From Escherichia coli (GTDB lineage Bacteria > Pseudomonadota > Gammaproteobacteria > Enterobacterales > Enterobacteriaceae), in the NCBI RefSeq assembly GCF_030384885.1, contig NZ_CP128613.1: DNA of 64,000 bases. One strand, written 5' to 3'. The notes beneath the pieces are model-generated. The model saw nothing but the letters and a program-made list of their open reading frames with translations, searched no databases and was not told where the DNA came from. How positions within the stretch are numbered: the stretch's first letter is position 1; each line of letters opens with the position of its first letter. Shown in pieces: positions 40-21,075 of the stretch. The position numbers and the translations under genes are program-made.

Positions 40-783
40 ATGGATGGTCCGACAAAACAAGAATTTGAAGAGATGTTGGAACCAGAAGGTTTAGATTTGA
101 ATAATTATCTCACCGACTCTTGCACACCTGTCAGGAAGGTTACAATTTCCCCGATGCTGGTTGAAAGAAACGTTCACGCCGAACCAAGTTGGAAGGAAGT
201 ATCTCTTACGGACCCCCGCATCACAGAGAACAGCATGCTGCAAAAATTTCTGTCTGATTATATGGAAAAAATTAATCCTGGAGTTCACGAATTAAACGCA
301 AGATTGAGATTACAATATATAGATGGGGATTTATTTGCACAAATATATGAATCAATTAGCTATGATGAGTTACTTCAAAATATCCAAAGCAATAGTTTTG
401 ATCTTCCGAGCGAAGATGAATGGGAATATTTATGTGGCGGTGGTTCCAGGACACTCTGGCGCTGGGGGAATAATTTCGACTATCAAATGAAAATCCCATT
501 TATTACTTCAGAAGAACCAACAACCTGGGATATAGAATGGCCTAATCAGTTTGGGTTGCAGATTGCATTTGATCCCTATCTTCAGGAAATTATTAATGAT
601 AAAGATATTCTTCTGAAAGGTGGCGATGGTGGGTGCAATCTCTGCGGAGGTGCTAATGTTGTATTAGGATTCTTGCCTGTGGCAACTTATTACAAAGGAT
701 ATAATAAACATACGGACGAATTAGAATATATGGATGACATTGGAGACAATTATACTTCTTATCGCAGAATAATTCGTTTATGA
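40..783 (+). CDS. hypothetical protein with FGE-sulfatase-like (SUMF1/EgtB/PvdO-type) domain
   Basis: 247-aa ORF; motifs SEDEWEYLCGGG, WRWGNN and PNQFGLQ resemble the conserved core of formylglycine-generating-enzyme-family domains; sits in AT-rich DNA. Confidence 0.45.
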   Translation: MDGPTKQEFEEMLEPEGLDLNNYLTDSCTPVRKVTISPMLVERNVHAEPSWKEVSLTDPRITENSMLQKFLSDYMEKINPGVHELNARLRLQYIDGDLFAQIYESISYDELLQNIQSNSFDLPSEDEWEYLCGGGSRTLWRWGNNFDYQMKIPFITSEEPTTWDIEWPNQFGLQIAFDPYLQEIINDKDILLKGGDGGCNLCGGANVVLGFLPVATYYKGYNKHTDELEYMDDIGDNYTSYRRIIRL

Positions 784-834
784 GTAAAAATTATATTTCA
801 GGACAAGAAGTTATGCTCGAGTCAAGCTAATGAA

Positions 835-2346
835 TTGCTTAACGCAAGGAATAAAAACGTATTGATGAACACTGGGAATTTCGAGTCGATACAAATCATG
901 ATCGCCGCGCAAGAGTGGCGTAGCCTGCCGCTGCATCTGCGTTTGTATCAGGCTTTTCGTCAGTTGGTGATTTCTGGCGCGTTGTCTGATGGCGCAAAAC
1001 TGCCGTCCGCTCGCGCACTGGCCCAGCAACTGCACCTTTCCAGAGATACCATCGAAAATGCCTATTCCCAGCTCCACCGCGACGGTTTTATGGCTCGCAG
1101 GCAGGGGGCCGGGAGTTTCGCCAGCCGCCAGGGGATACCGCATATTCAGGGCCAGCATGCGCAACCACCCTCGCCCGGACAAGTACCGGCTTTAAGCGCT
1201 CGCTGGCAGCCAATTGCCGATCGCGCAGTCTCTTTCGATGCCCGCCAGATGCAGACCTTTACGCTTGGCCTGCCGGAAACGCGAAACTTCCCGCTAAACA
1301 TTTGGCAGAACTTTTCCCGCCAGATCCAACGTGAGCAGGCGCATACGCTGATGTTAAATAGCGATCCGCAGGGCGAGCCACAGCTGCGCCAGCAAATTGC
1401 GCATTACCTTAATTTTGAACGCGGCGCGAAGGTAGATGCCGGGCAGATTGTGATTGTCAGCGGCGCACGGCAGGCGTTCTGGCTGTGCGGGCAACTGCTG
1501 GCAGAGGCCGGACAGTCGGTGGCGATGGAAAATCCGGGCTATCCCGGCGCGCGTCAGGCGTTTTCTGCCGCACAGCTTAATCTTCTTCCCGTTGAAGTGG
1601 ATGACGCCGGGATCCGGGTGGATAAACTGCCGCCCGCGCCGCTGGTTTACGTCACGCCCTCGCACCAGTTTCCTTCCGGTCATTTGCTCACGCTGGCGCG
1701 GCGTCATGCCCTGATTGCCTGGGCGCAGGCGCACAATGCATGGATTATCGAAGACGACTACGACAGCGAATTTCACTACACCAGCGCGCCCGTCGCCTGT
1801 CTGCAAGGGTTAGACTGCGAGCAACGCACCCTGTATGTCGGCACTTTCAGCAAAACGCTCTATCCCGGCCTGCGCATCGGTTATCTGGTGGTGCCGACGT
1901 CGCTGGCTGCGCACTTTGCCGCCGCGCGTAATTTGCTTGATGGCGCAACGCCTGCGTTATCCCAACTAACGCTGGCGCGATTTATCGAGTCCGGTCATTT
2001 TGCCGCCCATATTCGCAACATGCGCAGTATGTACGCAGTGCGACAGGCGAGCCTGGCAGAGGCTATTCATCAACACTTAAGTGAATGGGTCACGCCAGTG
2101 GTGACATCCGGTGGGTTACAAATGCCCTGCTGGCTGCATGAAGGTATTGATGAGCAACAGACGCTAAATGCCGCGCGCCGCGCCGGGTTAAACATCGCCG
2201 GAATGCGCCAGTTCTGGCTGACGCACCCCGCGCCCGCGGGCTGGCTGCTGGGATTTGCCGCCTTTACCCCCTACGAGATTGAACAGGGCGTCAAGCGTCT
2301 GCGGGCTGCATTATGCACTGAAAACGTGCGCCCAGCCGGGTCATAA
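835..2346 (+). CDS. MocR/GntR-family transcriptional regulator with PLP-dependent aminotransferase-like domain
   Basis: 503-aa ORF; N-terminal HTH-like segment (LPSARALAQQLHLSRDTIENAY) followed by an aminotransferase-fold domain with candidate PLP lysine (TFSKTLYPG); true start probably an internal Met near 898. Confidence 0.7.
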   Translation: MLNARNKNVLMNTGNFESIQIMIAAQEWRSLPLHLRLYQAFRQLVISGALSDGAKLPSARALAQQLHLSRDTIENAYSQLHRDGFMARRQGAGSFASRQGIPHIQGQHAQPPSPGQVPALSARWQPIADRAVSFDARQMQTFTLGLPETRNFPLNIWQNFSRQIQREQAHTLMLNSDPQGEPQLRQQIAHYLNFERGAKVDAGQIVIVSGARQAFWLCGQLLAEAGQSVAMENPGYPGARQAFSAAQLNLLPVEVDDAGIRVDKLPPAPLVYVTPSHQFPSGHLLTLARRHALIAWAQAHNAWIIEDDYDSEFHYTSAPVACLQGLDCEQRTLYVGTFSKTLYPGLRIGYLVVPTSLAAHFAAARNLLDGATPALSQLTLARFIESGHFAAHIRNMRSMYAVRQASLAEAIHQHLSEWVTPVVTSGGLQMPCWLHEGIDEQQTLNAARRAGLNIAGMRQFWLTHPAPAGWLLGFAAFTPYEIEQGVKRLRAALCTENVRPAGS

Positions 2347-3397
2347 TCTCATACGGGATGGTGTTGCAGGCAGCGGCAACCTGTTCCAGCGTCTGGCCTG
2401 CGCCAATAAATTCCACCTTATCGCCCGCTGTCGGCGTGACGGCGCTGGCATCGACCATAAAGCTGTCCATACAAACCCGCCCCAATACCGGTAACCGCAC
2501 GCCGCGCCAGCATACGCCCGCCGGAGGACGCATATTTCGCGGAACGCCATCCGCGTAACCCGCGGATATCGTAGCGATACGCAGCGGACGCGTGGCGGTA
2601 ATCGTACTGCCATAGCCAACTGGCGTTCCCGCCGGGACATCCTGCACGCGCAGAATAGTTAGCGTCAGCGTAAAAGCCGGTTTTAGCGGCCTGGAAAACC
2701 ACGGCTGGGCGACGCCAAACAGCGCAATCCCCGGACGGCAGAGATCTTCCCGCCAACCTGGTTGCAAAAACATTCCGCAGGAGTTCGCCAGCGAAAATCG
2801 GCTGCTGGGGAAAACCGTTTTTGCCTGCTGGAATAGCGCGTGTTGCGCCACATTTAACGCATGATCCGGCCTGTCGGCGTTCGCCAGATGGCTGATGATA
2901 TAGTCCGGCGCAGGCCAGTTACGCTCACGAAATATCGCCGCCAGACGCATCAGTTGTTGCGGCATCACGCCCAGCCGCGACATACCGGAATCGAGCTGGA
3001 TCATCACCGCACGCCGCTGCTGGCGCGTTTCCAGTAACGTAAGCCACGCCATCACCTGGTCAATGGAATTGAGCAATGGCGTGATCTGCTGCGCGTAACA
3101 ATACGCCATCGCCTCCGGCATAACCCCATTAAGCACTACCACCATCGCATCAGTGGGCAGGATTTTACGCAGCGCCACGCCCTCCGAAAGCTGTGCCACA
3201 AAAAAGATCCGGCAGTTCGCCGCATACAGGGCGGGCGCAATCGCCTCCGCCCCCAGACCATAGGCATTGGCTTTCAACACCGCGCCACATTGCGCAGGGG
3301 CAACATGGCGCGCCAGCGTGCGATAATTATCGACGATGGCGGCGAGATTGACGCACATAACGCCGCACGCCGCCTGGATTTCAGTAGAAGTCATCAT
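2291..3397 (-). CDS. alanine racemase family protein (PLP-dependent)
   Basis: 368-aa ORF with PLP-lysine motif VLKANAYGLG typical of alanine racemases; start overlaps the stop of the upstream SHMT-like gene. Confidence 0.7.
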   Translation of the reverse strand: MMTSTEIQAACGVMCVNLAAIVDNYRTLARHVAPAQCGAVLKANAYGLGAEAIAPALYAANCRIFFVAQLSEGVALRKILPTDAMVVVLNGVMPEAMAYCYAQQITPLLNSIDQVMAWLTLLETRQQRRAVMIQLDSGMSRLGVMPQQLMRLAAIFRERNWPAPDYIISHLANADRPDHALNVAQHALFQQAKTVFPSSRFSLANSCGMFLQPGWREDLCRPGIALFGVAQPWFSRPLKPAFTLTLTILRVQDVPAGTPVGYGSTITATRPLRIATISAGYADGVPRNMRPPAGVCWRGVRLPVLGRVCMDSFMVDASAVTPTAGDKVEFIGAGQTLEQVAAACNTIPYEIMTRLGARFQCIMQPADA

Positions 3398-4632
3398 TGA
3401 TAAGACAACGGGTAGCGGTTGGTTAGTTGTATTACTTTTTGCTCAATATCGGCGCAAATGCCTGCGATATCTGACGAGTTGATGGCGAAAATGATTTCAC
3501 TTATCCAGTCAGCAATAAGCACAAAATCATCCGCCTTCATCCCACGCGTGGTGCAGGCCGCGCTGCCAATACGGACCCCGGAGGTAATCGACGGCGGCTG
3601 CGGATCGCCCGGCAGGGTGTTTTTATTGACCGTGATCCCCGCCAGTTCGAGAAAGTACTCCACCTGTGCGCCGGTTAACCCCTGCGGGCGCAGGTCGATA
3701 ATCCCCAGATGGCAGTCGGTGCCGCCCGTTAACAGCGTCAGACCGCGCTGCGCCAGTTGCTGGCACATCGCCTGCGCATTGTCGATAACCTACCCGGCGT
3801 AACGTTTAAATTCTGGTTGTAATGCCTCGCCAAGCGCCACCGCTTTCGCCGCGATAACGTGCATCAACGGCCCGCCCTGCAAACCGGGAAAGATGGCGCT
3901 GTCGATTTTTTTCGCAAGCCTGGCGTCATTGGTGAGGATCATGCCGCCGCGCGGCCCGCGCAACGTTTTATGCGTGGTGGTGGTGACCACATCAGCATAC
4001 GCCAGCGGCGAAGGAAAACAGCCGCCCGCCACCAGCCCGGCAAAGTGCGCCATATCCACCAGCAAAATGGCATCAACGGCATCGGCAATGCGGCGAAAAC
4101 GGGCAAAATCATAGTGGCGTGGATAAGCCGATCCTCCGGCAATAATTAACCGTGGGCGCTCGCGTAGCGCGATCATCTCGACCTCATCCATATCAATCAG
4201 GCCACTATGGGCATCGACGCCATAGTGAAAGGCGTTAAACCATTTGCCGGATTGATTGACCGGAGAACCGTGCGTGAGATGCCCGCCGCATTGCAGGCTC
4301 ATGCCAAGAATTTTGTCGCCGGGCTTCAGCAACGCCAGATAGACCGCCTGATTCGCCTGGCTGCCGGAGTGAGGCTGCACATTGACGTAACGCGCGCCAA
4401 AGAGCTGCTGCGCGCGGGTTATCGCCAGCATCTCAACCTCATCAATAAACTTACAGCCGCCGTAATAGCGATGCTGGTAATAACCTTCGGCGTATTTATT
4501 GGTTAACACCGACCCCTGCGCCGCGAGAACGGCGGGGCTTACGAAATTCTCCGAGGCAATCAGTTCCAGCGACTGCTGCTGGCGCTGTTGCTCCTGGTTA
4601 ATCAATGCAAAAAGTGGATCGTTATTTATCAT
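3394..4632 (-). pseudogene. serine hydroxymethyltransferase (GlyA-like) paralog interrupted by an in-frame TAG at 3790-3792
   Basis: ORFs 3790..4698 and 3394..3768 are in the same frame; both halves align to SHMT ([17 protein letters not shown]-lysine motif; GITVNKN); the stop sits where GlyA has a Gln in the YQQQV region. Confidence 0.65.
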
Positions 4633-7907: not shown

Positions 7908-9461
7908 ATGATGAGAACTGTATTTACGACTTTATCAGTCATATTCAGCGTGATGTTTTCTCACAGTATACTAGCTCAGGACGTTACTATTTATTATACG
8001 AATGATATTCACGCACATGTCAATCCGGCAAAAATTCCCGCTGTTGATAAGAACAGACTTGTAGGTGGTATGGCTAATATTGCAGGCATCGTTAATGAAG
8101 CGAAGAAAAAAAACAAAGATGTCTTTTTCTTTGATGCAGGCGACTATTTTACCGGTCCGTATATCAGTACCCTGACCAAAGGTGAAGCTATTATTGATAT
8201 CATGAACACCATGCCCTTTGATGCGGTGTCCGTTGGTAATCACGAGTTCGATCACGGCGTGCCCAATATGGTATCTCAGTTATCAAAAGCAAAATTCCCC
8301 ATTCTGCTGGGAAATATTTACTACACCGATACAAATAAACCAGTTTGGGATCATCCGTGGACCATTATCGAAAAAGATGGTTTAAAGATTGGTGTGATTG
8401 GATTGCATGGTGCATTCGCTTTCTATGATACAGTCGCGGCAAAAGCACGTGAAGGCGTAGAAGCCAGAGACGAAATTAAATATTTAAATAAAGCACTTGC
8501 AGAATTAAAAGGTAAAGTCGACATTACCGTTTTGCTAATTCACGAAGGTGTTCCGGCGCGTCAATCAAGCTTTGGTAGTAAAGATGTGGAGCGGCTACTA
8601 CAGGCAGATATTGAGACAGCTAAAAAAGTGAATGGTGTTGATGTCTTAATTACCGGTCACGCACATGTCGGAACACCGCAACCAATAAAAGTTAATAACA
8701 CATTAATTGTATCTACCGATGCATACGGCACCGACATCGGAAAACTTGTGCTTGATTACAATCCGAAAACAAAGAAAATTGATAGTTATAATGGTGAGTT
8801 AATCACCATCTTTGCAGATCAATTTAAACCTGACACCATCGTTCAAAATACTATCGATAAATGGAGCATAAAGCTTAACAAAATAACACAGGAAGTTGTC
8901 GGCCATTCTCCCGTAGTTTTAACACGTGAGTATGGCAGTTCTTCTTCTACCGGTAACCTTATTCTAGATGCAATGATGGAAAAAACACCTGATGCCATTG
9001 CCGGATTTCAAAATAGCGGTGGGATGCGAGCTGATTTTCCTAAAGGTGATATCACACTGGGAGATGTTATTAGCACATTCCCCTTTAATAATGACCTCAT
9101 CGAGATGGATTTGACGGGCCGCGATCTCAAATCATTGATGACGCATGCAACCAATCTAACTAACGGTGTGTTACAGGTTTCAAAAAGCGTTGCGGTTGTC
9201 TATGACAGCAAAAAACCACTCAACCAACGGTTAATCTCTTTCACCATTAACGGCAAACCCGTGGAAGATAATCAAACATATCGTATTGCCACGCACTCCT
9301 TTTGTGCCAGTGGTGGTGACGGTTTTGAAGCATTTTTGAATGGAAAAAATGTGAAGACGATACCGGGAACAACCTCGGCGGAATCTATCATCGATTATTT
9401 CAAAAATCATAAACCTGTCACCCCAGACTTAACTAAACGAGTCATGGACGTCGCCAAATAA
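7908..9461 (+). CDS. secreted bifunctional metallophosphatase / 5'-nucleotidase (UshA family), paralog 2
   Basis: 517-aa ORF; signal peptide; same metallophosphatase motifs as paralog 1 ([23 protein letters not shown]). Confidence 0.8.
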   Translation: MMRTVFTTLSVIFSVMFSHSILAQDVTIYYTNDIHAHVNPAKIPAVDKNRLVGGMANIAGIVNEAKKKNKDVFFFDAGDYFTGPYISTLTKGEAIIDIMNTMPFDAVSVGNHEFDHGVPNMVSQLSKAKFPILLGNIYYTDTNKPVWDHPWTIIEKDGLKIGVIGLHGAFAFYDTVAAKAREGVEARDEIKYLNKALAELKGKVDITVLLIHEGVPARQSSFGSKDVERLLQADIETAKKVNGVDVLITGHAHVGTPQPIKVNNTLIVSTDAYGTDIGKLVLDYNPKTKKIDSYNGELITIFADQFKPDTIVQNTIDKWSIKLNKITQEVVGHSPVVLTREYGSSSSTGNLILDAMMEKTPDAIAGFQNSGGMRADFPKGDITLGDVISTFPFNNDLIEMDLTGRDLKSLMTHATNLTNGVLQVSKSVAVVYDSKKPLNQRLISFTINGKPVEDNQTYRIATHSFCASGGDGFEAFLNGKNVKTIPGTTSAESIIDYFKNHKPVTPDLTKRVMDVAK

Positions 9462-16524: not shown

Positions 16525-17133
16525 ATGAAATACAGGCTACTGATCCTCAACCTGCTGGTTTCTGTGCCTGCCTTTGCCTGGCAGCCGCAAACTGGCGACA
16601 TCATCTTTCAAATCTCTCGCTCATCGCAAAGTAAAGCGATCCAACTGGCGACCCATTCCGATTACAGCCACACCGGTATGCTGGTGATGCGTAACAAAAA
16701 GCCCTACGTTTTTGAAGCGGTCGGCCCGGTGAAATACACCCCGCTCAAGCAGTGGATCGCCCATGGTGAAAAGGGTAAATACGTTGTTCGCCGCGTTGAA
16801 GGCGGACTGAGTGTTGAACAACAGCAAAAACTGGCGCAAACGGCAAAACGTTATCTCGGAAAACCGTACGATTTCAGCTTCTCATGGAGCGACGATCGCC
16901 AGTACTGTTCGGAAGTGGTGTGGAAGGTTTACCAGAATGCGCTGGGGATGCGCGTGGGTGAACAGCAAAAACTGAAAGAGTTCGATCTCAGCAACCCGCT
17001 GGTTCAGGCGAAGCTCAAAGAACGTTACGGGAAAAATATTCCGCTTGAGGAAACGGTGGTCTCGCCACAAGCCGTTTTCGATGCGCCACAACTCACCACA
17101 GTCGCCAAAGAATGGCCGCTGTTTTCGTGGTAA
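16525..17133 (+). CDS. yiiX: YiiX family protein (putative lipid-binding hydrolase)
   Basis: 202-aa ORF with signal peptide; recognised as YiiX; position next to metJ matches K-12. Confidence 0.85.
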   Translation: MKYRLLILNLLVSVPAFAWQPQTGDIIFQISRSSQSKAIQLATHSDYSHTGMLVMRNKKPYVFEAVGPVKYTPLKQWIAHGEKGKYVVRRVEGGLSVEQQQKLAQTAKRYLGKPYDFSFSWSDDRQYCSEVVWKVYQNALGMRVGEQQKLKEFDLSNPLVQAKLKERYGKNIPLEETVVSPQAVFDAPQLTTVAKEWPLFSW

Positions 17134-18489: not shown

Positions 18490-19100
18490 TTAAGTGAGTA
18501 GGCCACCGGAACCTCCCCGACAGCCTCTCGCAGAACCGTACGTGAAACTCTCGCTTCATACGGCTCCCGTCAGGCAAACGCGCTTCCTGGTCCTGCTTTC
18601 CAGTGGGCAAACAACTCCGGCTTCTCTTTTGACAGCCTTTCCATTAGCTGACACGCCTTCGTCTTTCTATACCGCAGGGTTTTATATTTCTTTCTCGCCC
18701 ACGCAATCAGCGTCAGATTAATATATCTGCATACTTTCTTCATCGCTGATTTGTGGTATCTCGCGTAATAATTCAGCCACCCCAATATTATCGGATTCAG
18801 CCACTTCGCAATATCTTCGAGACTCATCTCCACCCTGCGTCTGATCCACAGTTTCCTGAGTTTTCCAATCATGCCTTCGGGTTTACTCATCTCACTGTAT
18901 CTCACATAGGATCAGATCTCGTCTGATCGTTCCCCCTGCGCTCACTACCATGGCTCTTTACCACAGCAGCCGGGGTTGTTTGGGACCGACTTCCGACAGC
19001 AGATCCCGGTGGGCCTGCCACCATCTCTTCACAAGCTTATGCTTATTACATGCAAAACGTCCCGTTTTGCATCTTTGTGCCTACGGCACACCGTGATCTT
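18490..19100 (-). mobile_element. 5'-truncated group II intron remnant (maturase C-terminus plus RNA domains V and VI)
   Basis: ORF 18570..18905 carries a maturase-like motif (WLNPIILGWLNYYARY); downstream on the same strand, about 18532-18566, is GAGCCGTATGAAGCGAGAGTTTCACGTACGGTTCTG, which folds as a domain-V-like hairpin. Confidence 0.6.
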
Positions 19101-19111
19101 TCCCTGTCGGC

Positions 19112-19320
19112 ATGTTGACCACTGACGAATGGGGTAGTTACGCTAGAGAGTTACCAAAGGAGAAGCATCTGACTGGTAAGATTTTTACTCAGCATATTGA
19201 GCGTAACAATCTGACCCTGAGAACCCGAATCAAACGTCTGGCCCGCAGAACCATCTGTTTCTCGCGTTCTGTAGAACTTCATGAAAAAGTCATCGGTGCT
19301 TTTATCGAAAATATATGTTC
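19112..19320 (+). pseudogene. IS1-family transposase (InsB-like) C-terminal fragment
   Basis: ORF 19112..19426 contains TDEWGSYARELPK...FTQHIERNNLTLRTRIKRLARRTICFSRSVELHEKVIG, similar to the C-terminal part of IS1 InsB; no N-terminal part. Confidence 0.6.
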
Positions 19321-19395
19321 TACTAATTGGAGTCATCACCCTTCTGATGAGCTTTCCTTGGATGATTACCAGACTGAATACATAGCCAAAGATTT

Positions 19396-19719
19396 TTACC
19401 TCATTCTGCTTTTTTTTCTCAAATGACATATATTATATTTTACATCATATTCATAGGCATATGACATTCCCCCGCCCCCCATTATGTCATTGTGGGTTGA
19501 TGTTGGGCTTTCATAAAAAAATACATCTTTTTTTGAACTAGCATTAATTATATTTACTTTATATATTAAAATATTTTCTCCATCTGGAAATATTTTAGCC
19601 ACACAATATAAAGCAGCCAAATCCGAATTACTTAAAAATATATTGTCATCACTCATAACTCCAGCCATTAAATGACTGGAGACTAAAGCAAGGAAATAAC
19701 AACATTGTATTGCCTTCAT
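19396..19719 (-). CDS. putative immunity protein for the adjacent Rhs C-terminal toxin
   Basis: about 107 aa from internal Met (MKAIQCCYFLALVSSHLMAGV...), hydrophobic signal-peptide-like N-terminus; start codon lies 1 nt after the toxin stop with an AAGGGAG RBS; very AT-rich. Confidence 0.5.
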   Translation of the reverse strand: MKAIQCCYFLALVSSHLMAGVMSDDNIFLSNSDLAALYCVAKIFPDGENILIYKVNIINASSKKDVFFYESPTSTHNDIMGGGGMSYAYEYDVKYNICHLRKKSRMR

Positions 19720-19720
19720 T

Positions 19721-20275
19721 TTAATTACTCCCTTGCCTGATAATTGTAACTCCATTCCCTTTAGCTTTGGGATTATATTTTAGATAGGTGTTATTTGGTG
19801 TTCCCAAGTAACTACTGTATTCTTTTTTTCCCATTCCATTCATATAAGAATTCGTTAAATCTTTGCTTGAAAAATTTAGACTATCATAAACATCATTTTC
19901 TTTTGTTACTTTATTTCCTTTATCGTCAGAGTAAAAACCGTGAGTGTGATAATCGCCTACTCTCTCTGAACCTTCAGGGCATTTTATATTTCGCAAGTCT
20001 ACACTATCATTATCATTTGAACTTATCGGATTCATGGGGAAATATTCACCTTGCTTCTTACATATTAGTCCACCATATTCTTTATTCTCGTTAATTGATT
20101 CTCCATTACACATTGCCAATGCAAATATTCCAATATCATCTATATTTTTTGATTTAAATTCATATAATCCTAATGGATCCATGCCATTCACCGGGCTCAG
20201 CGGATATGTATACAGGTTCCATCCCCCCTTCAGCCCAATCGGATCCTGAGTGATATACCGCCCCTGTAACCGTCC
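19721..20275 (-). CDS. Rhs C-terminal tip: end of Rhs core (DPxGL motif) plus variable toxin domain
   Basis: reading frame encodes ...[35 protein letters not shown] followed by about 145 aa of low-GC sequence with conserved Cys/His (GDYHTHG); DPxGL marks the core/toxin boundary in Rhs proteins; no in-frame ATG at the 5' end. Confidence 0.6.
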
Positions 20276-20664
20276 TCACCGGGAAACAGGTGCTCAAAAT
20301 ACAGGCTTCTGCCGCCGTTATCACTGAGTATCAGAGTGTTATCGCGCAGCTGCAAGCGGATATCCGCAGGCATTTTCCAGCCGGGGCCGAGGCTCCCCAC
20401 CGGCGCGGGCGTTTTTGTCCGGTAACTGCTGTAGGTGCGGGAGAGGATGAACGGCAGCGGGCCGGGCAGGGCAAGGTCGGTTTCGCCGGGAAGGACCTTC
20501 GCACCGAGCAGCGGATTGACCGGATGGCCGGACGTCACCCCGCCGGGGCACACCGAACAGGCCACGCCGGTGGGGGCACCAATACGTACCCCGGCAGAAC
20601 CCTGGACAATGGGGCCACCATACTGCGTCATGTCGCCCTGACGCGCCGCCGGTTTTCCGCTCAT
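20230..20664 (-). pseudogene. Rhs N-terminal (PAAR-like) fragment, out of frame with the C-terminal tip
   Basis: 144-aa ORF MSGKPAARQGDMTQYGGPIVQGSAGVRIGAPTGVACSVCPGG... matches the conserved N-terminus of E. coli Rhs proteins for about 125 residues, then terminates. Confidence 0.7.
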
Positions 20665-20786
20665 CGTAAAATCCTTTTAAAATAAATAAGAACCAGAAGC
20701 CTAGCGCCAGTCAACAACAGGAAATGATAATGAGTTAACACCCCGGAATGTTTCAGAATTTATAAAAGGCAAATTACAGGCACAAA

Positions 20787-20815
20787 AAAAGCGCCGTGCG
20801 GCGCTTTTTTCGGAA
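20787..20815 (-). terminator. rho-independent terminator downstream of rpmE
   Basis: hairpin AAAAAAAGCGCCGTGCGGCGCTTTTTT immediately after the rpmE stop. Confidence 0.65.
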
Positions 20816-20823
20816 ATCCGGTC

Positions 20824-21075
<252 letters not shown>

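Follow-up and report, generated by a model that had tools for sequence, protein, structure and literature searches.

Both ends of an Escherichia coli rhs gene between rpmE and yiiX: a probable single 3,241-bp deletion whose left breakpoint recurs in other rhs alleles

The rhs island between rpmE and yiiX

We analyzed a 64,000-nucleotide stretch of Escherichia coli DNA (contig NZ_CP128613.1; hereafter the window, with positions counted from its first nucleotide) that carries an island between rpmE and yiiX at 16.5-21.1 kb. Read along the minus strand after rpmE, the island consists of a 144-codon ORF, a frame-shifted ORF, a 107-codon ORF, an IS1 fragment, a truncated group II intron maturase and an ISAs1-family transposase (Table 1).

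Table 1. Features of the rhs island and its flanks in the window, with L001-L006 denoting loci of other strains used for comparison
Feature	Position	Strand	Basis or remark
rpmE (ribosomal protein L31), conserved left flank of the island	20824..21036	-	70-aa ORF; rpmE annotated likewise in L001, L005 and other loci
N-terminal stub ORF, 144 codons	20664..20230	-	133 native Rhs residues and an 11-residue out-of-frame tail, then TGA
Deletion junction, lone kept copy of CAG	20264..20266	-	blastn against the intact allele; equals intact-gene nt 399-401 and nt 3640-3642
Dual-frame open stretch, sole place for a -1 shift	20233..20275	-	43 nt
C-terminal rhs fragment, -1 frame	19721..20263	-	Last 33 core residues after the junction Gln, then toxin domain; stop at 19723-19721
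Core-end motif of the PxxxxDPxGL type	20165..20194	-	Read from the translation
DUF4329 / Tox-JAB-2 toxin domain	19763..20125	-	Pfam PF14220, E 2.7e-16; DYHTHG is the H[ST]H motif
dsORF-f3, presumed immunity gene, 107 aa, intact	19396..19719	-	'RHS element protein dsORF-f3' annotated in L001-L006
IS1 transposase fragment	19115..19312	+	L005 annotation 7955-8152 mapped via 100% alignment; InsB-like ORF
Group II intron reverse transcriptase/maturase (ltrA) remnant	18570..18905	-	ORF list; L005 annotation and alignment
ISAs1-family (H-repeat) transposase, 378 aa	17226..18362	-	ORF and L005 annotation
yiiX, conserved right flank of the island	16525..17133	+	ORF and annotated loci

Of an Rhs toxin gene, the window holds both ends but lacks the middle. 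The stub begins with MSGKPAARQGD, with the PAAR motif KPAARQGD at residues 4-11, and matches Pfam DUF6531 over amino acids 46-123 (E 2.9e-19); a protein identical to it over all 144 aa is on record as CAD6104945.1. The C-terminal piece, which matches Pfam DUF4329, lies in the -1 frame of the N-terminal ORF and is closed upstream by a TGA at 20278-20276, while the N-terminal ORF stops at 20232-20230, so that a continuous frame from the N-terminus to the toxin is broken by a single base. Two sets of Rhs features are accordingly present, namely the PAAR region with DUF6531, and the core-end motif with toxin tip and immunity gene. Absent are two properties by which functional Rhs toxins are defined, a continuous frame and the repeat shell: neither fragment matched Pfam RHS_repeat, unlike longer alleles of the gene in which Pfam found RHS repeats, and nt 402-3642 of the intact gene are missing. 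The two ORFs, hence, are fragments of one pseudogene and not two genes, which corrects the annotation. A gene deprived of its shell and frameshifted would yield no Rhs toxin that could be delivered, so the rhs gene of the window is, judged from its sequence, probably non-functional.

The toxin tip and its presumed immunity gene are widespread. The pair occurs in 2,164 of the 5,426 complete E. coli genomes, O157:H7 included, and the copy in the window is 100% identical to that of strain 2013C-4282 and 97-99% identical to those of ~2,160 other complete genomes. The name dsORF-f3 presumably refers to Hill's RhsF of ECOR-50. In EDL933, the homologue is z5488, called 'RhsB' (PMC7216683). DUF4329 corresponds to Tox-JAB-2, a domain of JAB/deaminase-like fold with conserved E, H[ST]H, S and D positions, for which a nuclease rather than a peptidase activity was proposed (Zhang et al. 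2012, PMC3482391). We also considered whether the element described as 'RhsF/RhsFI' (NAR 2025, PMC7618764) is the same one, and rejected this because it lies at a different locus (ECs0604 region, S-loop 44). The dsORF-f3 gene starts 1 nt past the toxin stop, and its product had no Pfam match. Its N-terminus is hydrophobic and resembles a signal peptide (MKAIQCCYFLALVSSHLMAG), which would place the protein outside the cytoplasm; such a predicted location makes it an odd partner for a toxin of the predicted nuclease-type JAB family.

An in-frame ATG at 20182 on the minus strand (MDPLGL...) lies 5 nt after a Shine-Dalgarno-like GGTGA (window 20182-20200). The PxxxxDPxGL motif marks the site of Rhs C-terminal autocleavage (e.g. 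PMC8636562). Initiation at this ATG would begin a free toxin domain almost at that motif, and in the draft assembly GCA_904842275.1 a gene caller predicted a 153-aa DUF4329 ORF from the same start. A scan of 19300-20900 for promoters and terminators gave counts at chance level.

The junction and its origin

Searching with the whole island against the 5,426 complete genomes led to strain 2013C-4282 (NZ_CP027579.1, locus L005), in which the gene order equals that of the window (priA, rpmE, rhs, dsORF-f3, IS1 fragment, group II intron, ISAs1, yiiX) and the rhs CDS at the same rpmE-yiiX locus, annotated 'RHS element core protein', is uninterrupted and in frame (4,185 bp, 1,394 aa). On the right side of the junction, identity to L005 is 100% throughout. 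Upon alignment by blastn, three blocks were obtained: window 24025-20264 matched L005 1-3762 with one mismatch, window 20266-18876 matched L005 7001-8391 with none, and window 18877-9500 matched L005 9678-19055 with none. The two loci thus differ by one synonymous mismatch in ~14.5 kb and by two clean deletions, and by nothing else. The lone mismatch, at window 20353, falls on the third position of stub codon 104, at a distance of 87 nt from the junction, and leaves residues 1-133 the same in both proteins. The locus in GCA_904842275.1 is 100% identical to the window at this place and agrees with it at 20353.

The first of the two deletions removed most of the rhs gene. The stub equals nt 1-401 of the intact gene and the C-terminal piece equals nt 3640-4185 at 100%, with an overlap of 3 nt (CAG), such that nt 401 is joined to nt 3643 with the frame shifted by one base. 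The loss amounts to 4185 - 944 = 3,241 bp, or 1,080 codons and one base (3241 mod 3 = 1), and comprises codons 134-1213, which make up essentially the whole YD-repeat shell. CAG is found at both breakpoints and one copy is kept, whereas neither an IS end nor filler DNA was found at 20264-20266. Because the junction is defined by 100% identity to the intact allele on both sides, it does not reflect a chance resemblance. A first-pass annotation of the window had put the junction within about 20 bp inside 20230-20290 and asked for an alignment with an intact rhs gene; this alignment narrows the position to the 3 bp of CAG at 20266-20264, and revealed neither a contiguous in-frame rhs gene in the window nor a breakpoint elsewhere. 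The same annotation let N-terminal homology end near FEHLFPGE, a peptide that is indeed native. It lies at 20298-20275, however, and homology continues through GEDGY up to 20266-20264. Likewise, the core-end piece was said to begin, in another frame, at about 20269, which holds for the open stretch but not for the core homology, as the latter starts only with the CAG. The leucine at 20269 is accidental, since its TTA codon is read across the N-terminal GGT TAC while the intact gene has CTG.

The second deletion concerns the adjacent group II intron. At window 18876-18877, 1,288 bp were lost relative to L005 with an overlap of 2 bp (AA), which took the 5' two-thirds of the ltrA ORF and about 270 nt upstream. 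GCA_904842275.1 carries a different and smaller intron deletion (L005 about 8634-9447, 7-nt overlap) that lies inside the interval deleted in the window.

We conclude that the scar very probably stems from a single recent loss of 3,241 bp within the rhs gene between rpmE and yiiX, presumably by illegitimate (RecA-independent) deletion. The deletion may have used the 3-bp microhomology CAG, by replication slippage or by microhomology-mediated end joining, and would have produced a PAAR/DUF6531 stub, an out-of-frame fragment of core end and toxin with its DPLGL cleavage motif, and an intact immunity gene. For the short repeats suspected in the first-pass annotation, the one kept CAG is a candidate, at a level weakly above chance: by our calculation, at least 3 bp are expected at ~5% of random junctions, and for that reason the microhomology fits the mechanism without proving it, and the mechanistic label is a soft one. 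The junction was absent from all 5,426 complete genomes, in the sense that no one-piece match spanned it, although 2,164 of them carry the toxin-immunity module, which indicates that the event is young and restricted to a lineage. The junction does occur in the draft assembly GCA_904842275.1, one contig of which matches the window there at 100% identity. That a near-identical strain has a contiguous 1,394-aa gene, from which the window differs by one clean loss, strongly supports a single step from the intact allele, as had been suggested before. The accompanying statement that the gene had not decayed gradually is borne out for the allele in the window but not for the locus: across the species, the rpmE locus shows stepwise, repeated decay by several deletion alleles and IS insertions.

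These other rpmE-locus alleles are given here with their breakpoints as left|right nt of the intact gene. The L001 type (1474|3505) has 13 bp of junction homology, encoding EYDE in two YD repeats, the L002 type (970|3205) has 22 bp of imperfect homology, and the L003 type (399|2896) bears a second small deletion; all three are in frame. L004 corresponds to the L001 form, except that its toxin tip carries an additional IS1 insertion. In the L006 type, present in 25 genomes (L006:1437-4140 and 24 similar ones), an ISEc1 (an H-repeat, ISAs1-like element) lies between nt 383 and core nt 3157, which it abuts, and marks an IS-associated deletion 15-18 nt from the recurrent breakpoint described below. 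The in-frame ORFs, L001:4137-6278 (713 aa), L002:1637-3565 (642 aa) and L003:1637-3232 (531 aa), can be viewed as 'mini-Rhs' ORFs in which the N-terminus, a portion of the shell and the cleavage motif are still present along with the toxin and the immunity gene. In RefSeq, the L001 ORF is divided into a pseudogene and an overlapping CDS despite its continuous frame; we considered from these two overlapping annotations that L001 might be an out-of-frame allele, and rejected this as its translation gives one continuous ORF of 713 aa.

As an addition to the deletion history, the remnant, that is the stub and/or a free toxin fragment from the ATG at 20182 together with dsORF-f3, might have been kept because it is useful, either as immunity against neighbors with an intact toxin or as a module resembling a toxin-antitoxin system. 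Such a role would fit the immunity ORF and toxin domain, which are intact and 100% identical to those of the intact allele, as well as the 153-aa ORF called in the sister assembly. It would also fit the retention of dsORF-f3 in every rpmE-locus deletion allele examined and of ybfB (five of the six annotated rhsC-locus alleles) or ybfC (one) in the corresponding position. In EHEC, toxin tips of Rhs proteins and the cognate immunity genes were reported to be expressed from internal transcripts, which serves as an analogy only, as it concerns another locus (PMC7618764); internal transcription of Rhs toxin-immunity pairs, and orphan modules of toxin-antitoxin type, are reported in that work and in Salmonella (PMC7043789). 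Against this stands the chance-level outcome of the promoter scan. Furthermore, the deletion is so recent, with zero changes in either direction, that intactness is uninformative about selection. We hence regard a retained function as unlikely.

Very improbable, in our view, is a stepwise decay of the allele in the window by at least two nested deletions, for instance through a left end at codon 133 like that of L003 that was later extended rightwards. As many alleles share the same left breakpoint, a two-step history of this kind is conceivable: the left end at nt 398-402 recurs, so that a persisting hot spot could act twice, the rpmE-locus alleles keep varied amounts of the core (713, 642 and 531 aa, besides a form disrupted by an IS), L003 bears two separate deletions, and the neighboring intron has two different deletions in the sister genomes. 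Yet, both flanks in the window are 100% identical to intact L005 with no further differences, the native AG after TAC (nt 400-401) is kept in the window and absent from the L003-type junction, and GCA_904842275.1 already has the same rhs junction with no intermediate seen there.

A programmed -1 ribosomal frameshift within the 43-nt overlap at 20275-20233 would yield a compact fusion of PAAR, DUF6531 and toxin. The offset of the two overlapping frames by -1 and a GGGG run created by the junction (20264-20261) beside a rare AGG codon would suit such a shift, but the 144-codon stub ORF contains no slippery X_XXY_YYZ heptamer anywhere, and the arrangement was made by a 3,241-bp deletion of a gene that survives in frame in a near-identical strain. 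The two-frame arrangement is conserved in 0 of the 5,426 complete genomes and is private to its lineage, and of the gene's other deletion alleles, some are in frame and some are not. We therefore share the earlier skepticism on this point and consider a programmed frameshift extremely implausible. Finally, an assembly artefact, in which a repeated gene family was collapsed or joined chimerically, has a negligible chance of being correct, because even though rhs is multi-copy (the 100 bases left of the junction match 11,753 places in 3,883 genomes) and draft assemblies often break in it (many 'partial' proteins were among the stub-search matches), the 3 bp shared at the join are far below the k-mer of any assembler, the independent public assembly GCA_904842275.1 has the identical junction, and similar junctions occur in many finished genomes.

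A recurrent left breakpoint at codon 133

The single recent deletion that we favor shares its left end with other alleles. The left breakpoint in the window lies at GACGGTTA^CAG in codon 133 (window 20264-20270, intact-gene nt 396-402), and the same left breakpoint, within ~4 nt, recurs in no fewer than 10 further rhs deletion alleles of independent origin. Together with the window, this makes at least 11 distinct junctions with left ends at nt 396-402, with differing right ends and microhomologies of 1 to 8 nt; most of them fit a break at GGTTA^C. The alleles span three loci, rhsA, rhsC and rpmE (L003, L007, L009, L011, L015, L016 and L017). Using a short junction-spanning query, we found rhsC-locus remnants on the kdpA-ybfA side, with deletions at 398|3565 (L007, L009) and 398|3480 (L011), and with others elsewhere in the gene (467|3350, 493|3596, 726|3572 and 722|3408). 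The left ends 722 and 726 belong to two independent rhsC alleles (L013 and L014) and are 4 nt apart, which hints at a minor second cluster.

When the stub served as a protein query, many of the short E. coli proteins it matched were native through GEDGY and then jump, among other places, to TRTQY (nt 2934), HYDSQ (nt 2901), RYDRH (nt 2811), SYSTT (nt 2631), TPAGQ (nt 2511) or PAAGAAV (the L007 type); in a further allele, the sequence passes from GEDG into the middle of an IS3-type transposase. Checks at the DNA level placed L015 at the rhsA locus with breakpoints 394-402|2627 and 8 nt of GTTACAGC, L016 at the rhsA locus with nt 398 followed by sequence from inside an IS3-family element, and L017 at the rhsC locus, where the left end is nt 402. 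Among the matches listed (at most 252 aa), we counted as distinct stub-like alleles those proteins whose identity to the query was 94% or more and whose tail diverged; 10 of these 17 diverge at residues 132-134, while the others scatter over residues 150-184. Our queries were centered on this region, and some of the 'alleles' with a frameshift tail could be small indels. In the complete genomes, 186 of the ~11,750 places that match the 100-mer of the rhs N-terminus (1.6%) lose homology at nt 399-401, a figure that conveys scale and not the number of independent events, as clonal expansion of other alleles (e.g. O157) dominates these counts.

From these alignments, the shared left breakpoint looks like a deletion hot spot. 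We found no mention of the pattern in the literature passages searched. We tentatively propose, while judging it somewhat less probable than its negation, that codon 133 of clade I rhs genes may be a site-specific hot spot that repeatedly turns full-length genes into a PAAR/DUF6531 stub and a 5'-truncated core/toxin/immunity module at several loci, as a general and previously undescribed route.

As for a cause, a GC-rich hairpin at gene nt 401-435 lies directly 3' of the breakpoint. In a 40-nt scan, it reached -11.0 kcal/mol on the coding strand and -9.6 kcal/mol on the complement, making it the fourth strongest in the 4.2-kb gene and placing it in roughly the 1% tail. Replication might stall at this hairpin, with the coding-sense nascent strand stopping at about nt 398; the stalled strand could then switch forward and re-anneal, via its last few bases, at a microhomology downstream. 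We put this stalling forward as a weak hypothesis. A 101-nt fold around the breakpoint was no better than shuffles on either strand (z -0.38 and -0.51), and no strong hairpins were found next to the other left ends (467, 493, 722, 726, 970 and 1474). Chi was rejected as a cause, since neither the only true Chi at nt 633 nor the 7/8 chi-like GCTGGTGC at nt 420 predicts nt 398-402. Insertion sequences were rejected as a general cause because most codon-133 alleles involve no IS ends, and an IS-mediated deletion was discarded for the window, L003, L007, L011 and L015, at whose junctions no IS abuts. Selection for a clean boundary of the PAAR/DUF6531 region could contribute, given that the Pfam domain ends at residue 123, but it would be insufficient, as the 4-nt precision is found in both in-frame and out-of-frame alleles.

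By itself, the junction documents to the base the death of one Rhs toxin gene with survival of its immunity gene, which alone matters little. It is the recurrent breakpoint at codon 133 that deserves follow-up. If this site is fragile, it would help to explain the common stubs annotated as 'DUF6531 domain-containing protein, partial' and the 5'-truncated toxin modules in E. coli annotations, would show how immunity genes outlast toxins, and would provide a tractable natural model in which to ask how one end of a microhomology-mediated deletion becomes fixed. A true hot spot would, moreover, provide a route of origin for orphan-like toxin-immunity modules and for in-frame 'mini-Rhs' proteins, with the junction in the window as one instance.

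Comparison with known rhs remnants and deletions

Short-homology illegitimate deletions in E. coli resemble the event in the window in that DNA is cleanly lost between very short repeats, one copy is kept, and neither filler nor a mobile element is left behind. Compared with these, the repeat in the window is 3 bp and the interval is long (3.2 kb), and the mechanism is a presumed one.

In orphan rhs modules, which are located downstream of a main rhs gene, a core truncated at its 5' end is followed by a toxin tip and an immunity gene (Poole et al. 2011, PMC3150448; Jackson et al. 2009). The part to the right of the junction has the same composition, a short core end with DPxGL, a toxin domain and an immunity gene. 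However, classical orphans are thought to arise by displacement of the C-terminus and stand behind an intact main gene, whereas the module in the window would have been made in place by deletion of the body of the main gene, and the locus has no intact main gene. With the intact rpmE-yiiX rhs element that carries dsORF-f3, the window shares the site, the DUF4329 tip and the immunity gene, but it lacks codons 134-1213 and is frameshifted.

A close parallel is offered by clade I rhs loci of E. coli, which Jackson et al. (2009, BMC Genomics 10:584, PMC2935791) describe as intact in some strains and as fragments in others, with frequent and strain-specific loss by deletion. Like the rhs pseudogenes or 'relics' of that study, the window represents a positional rhs locus reduced to fragments. 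While that work scored loci as present, pseudogene or relic, with no breakpoints given in the passages searched, here the exact junction, the size of the loss and the microhomology are provided. Overall, the feature in the window is an rhs pseudogene or 'relic', an otherwise ordinary dead gene, in the form of a new, lineage-restricted allele.
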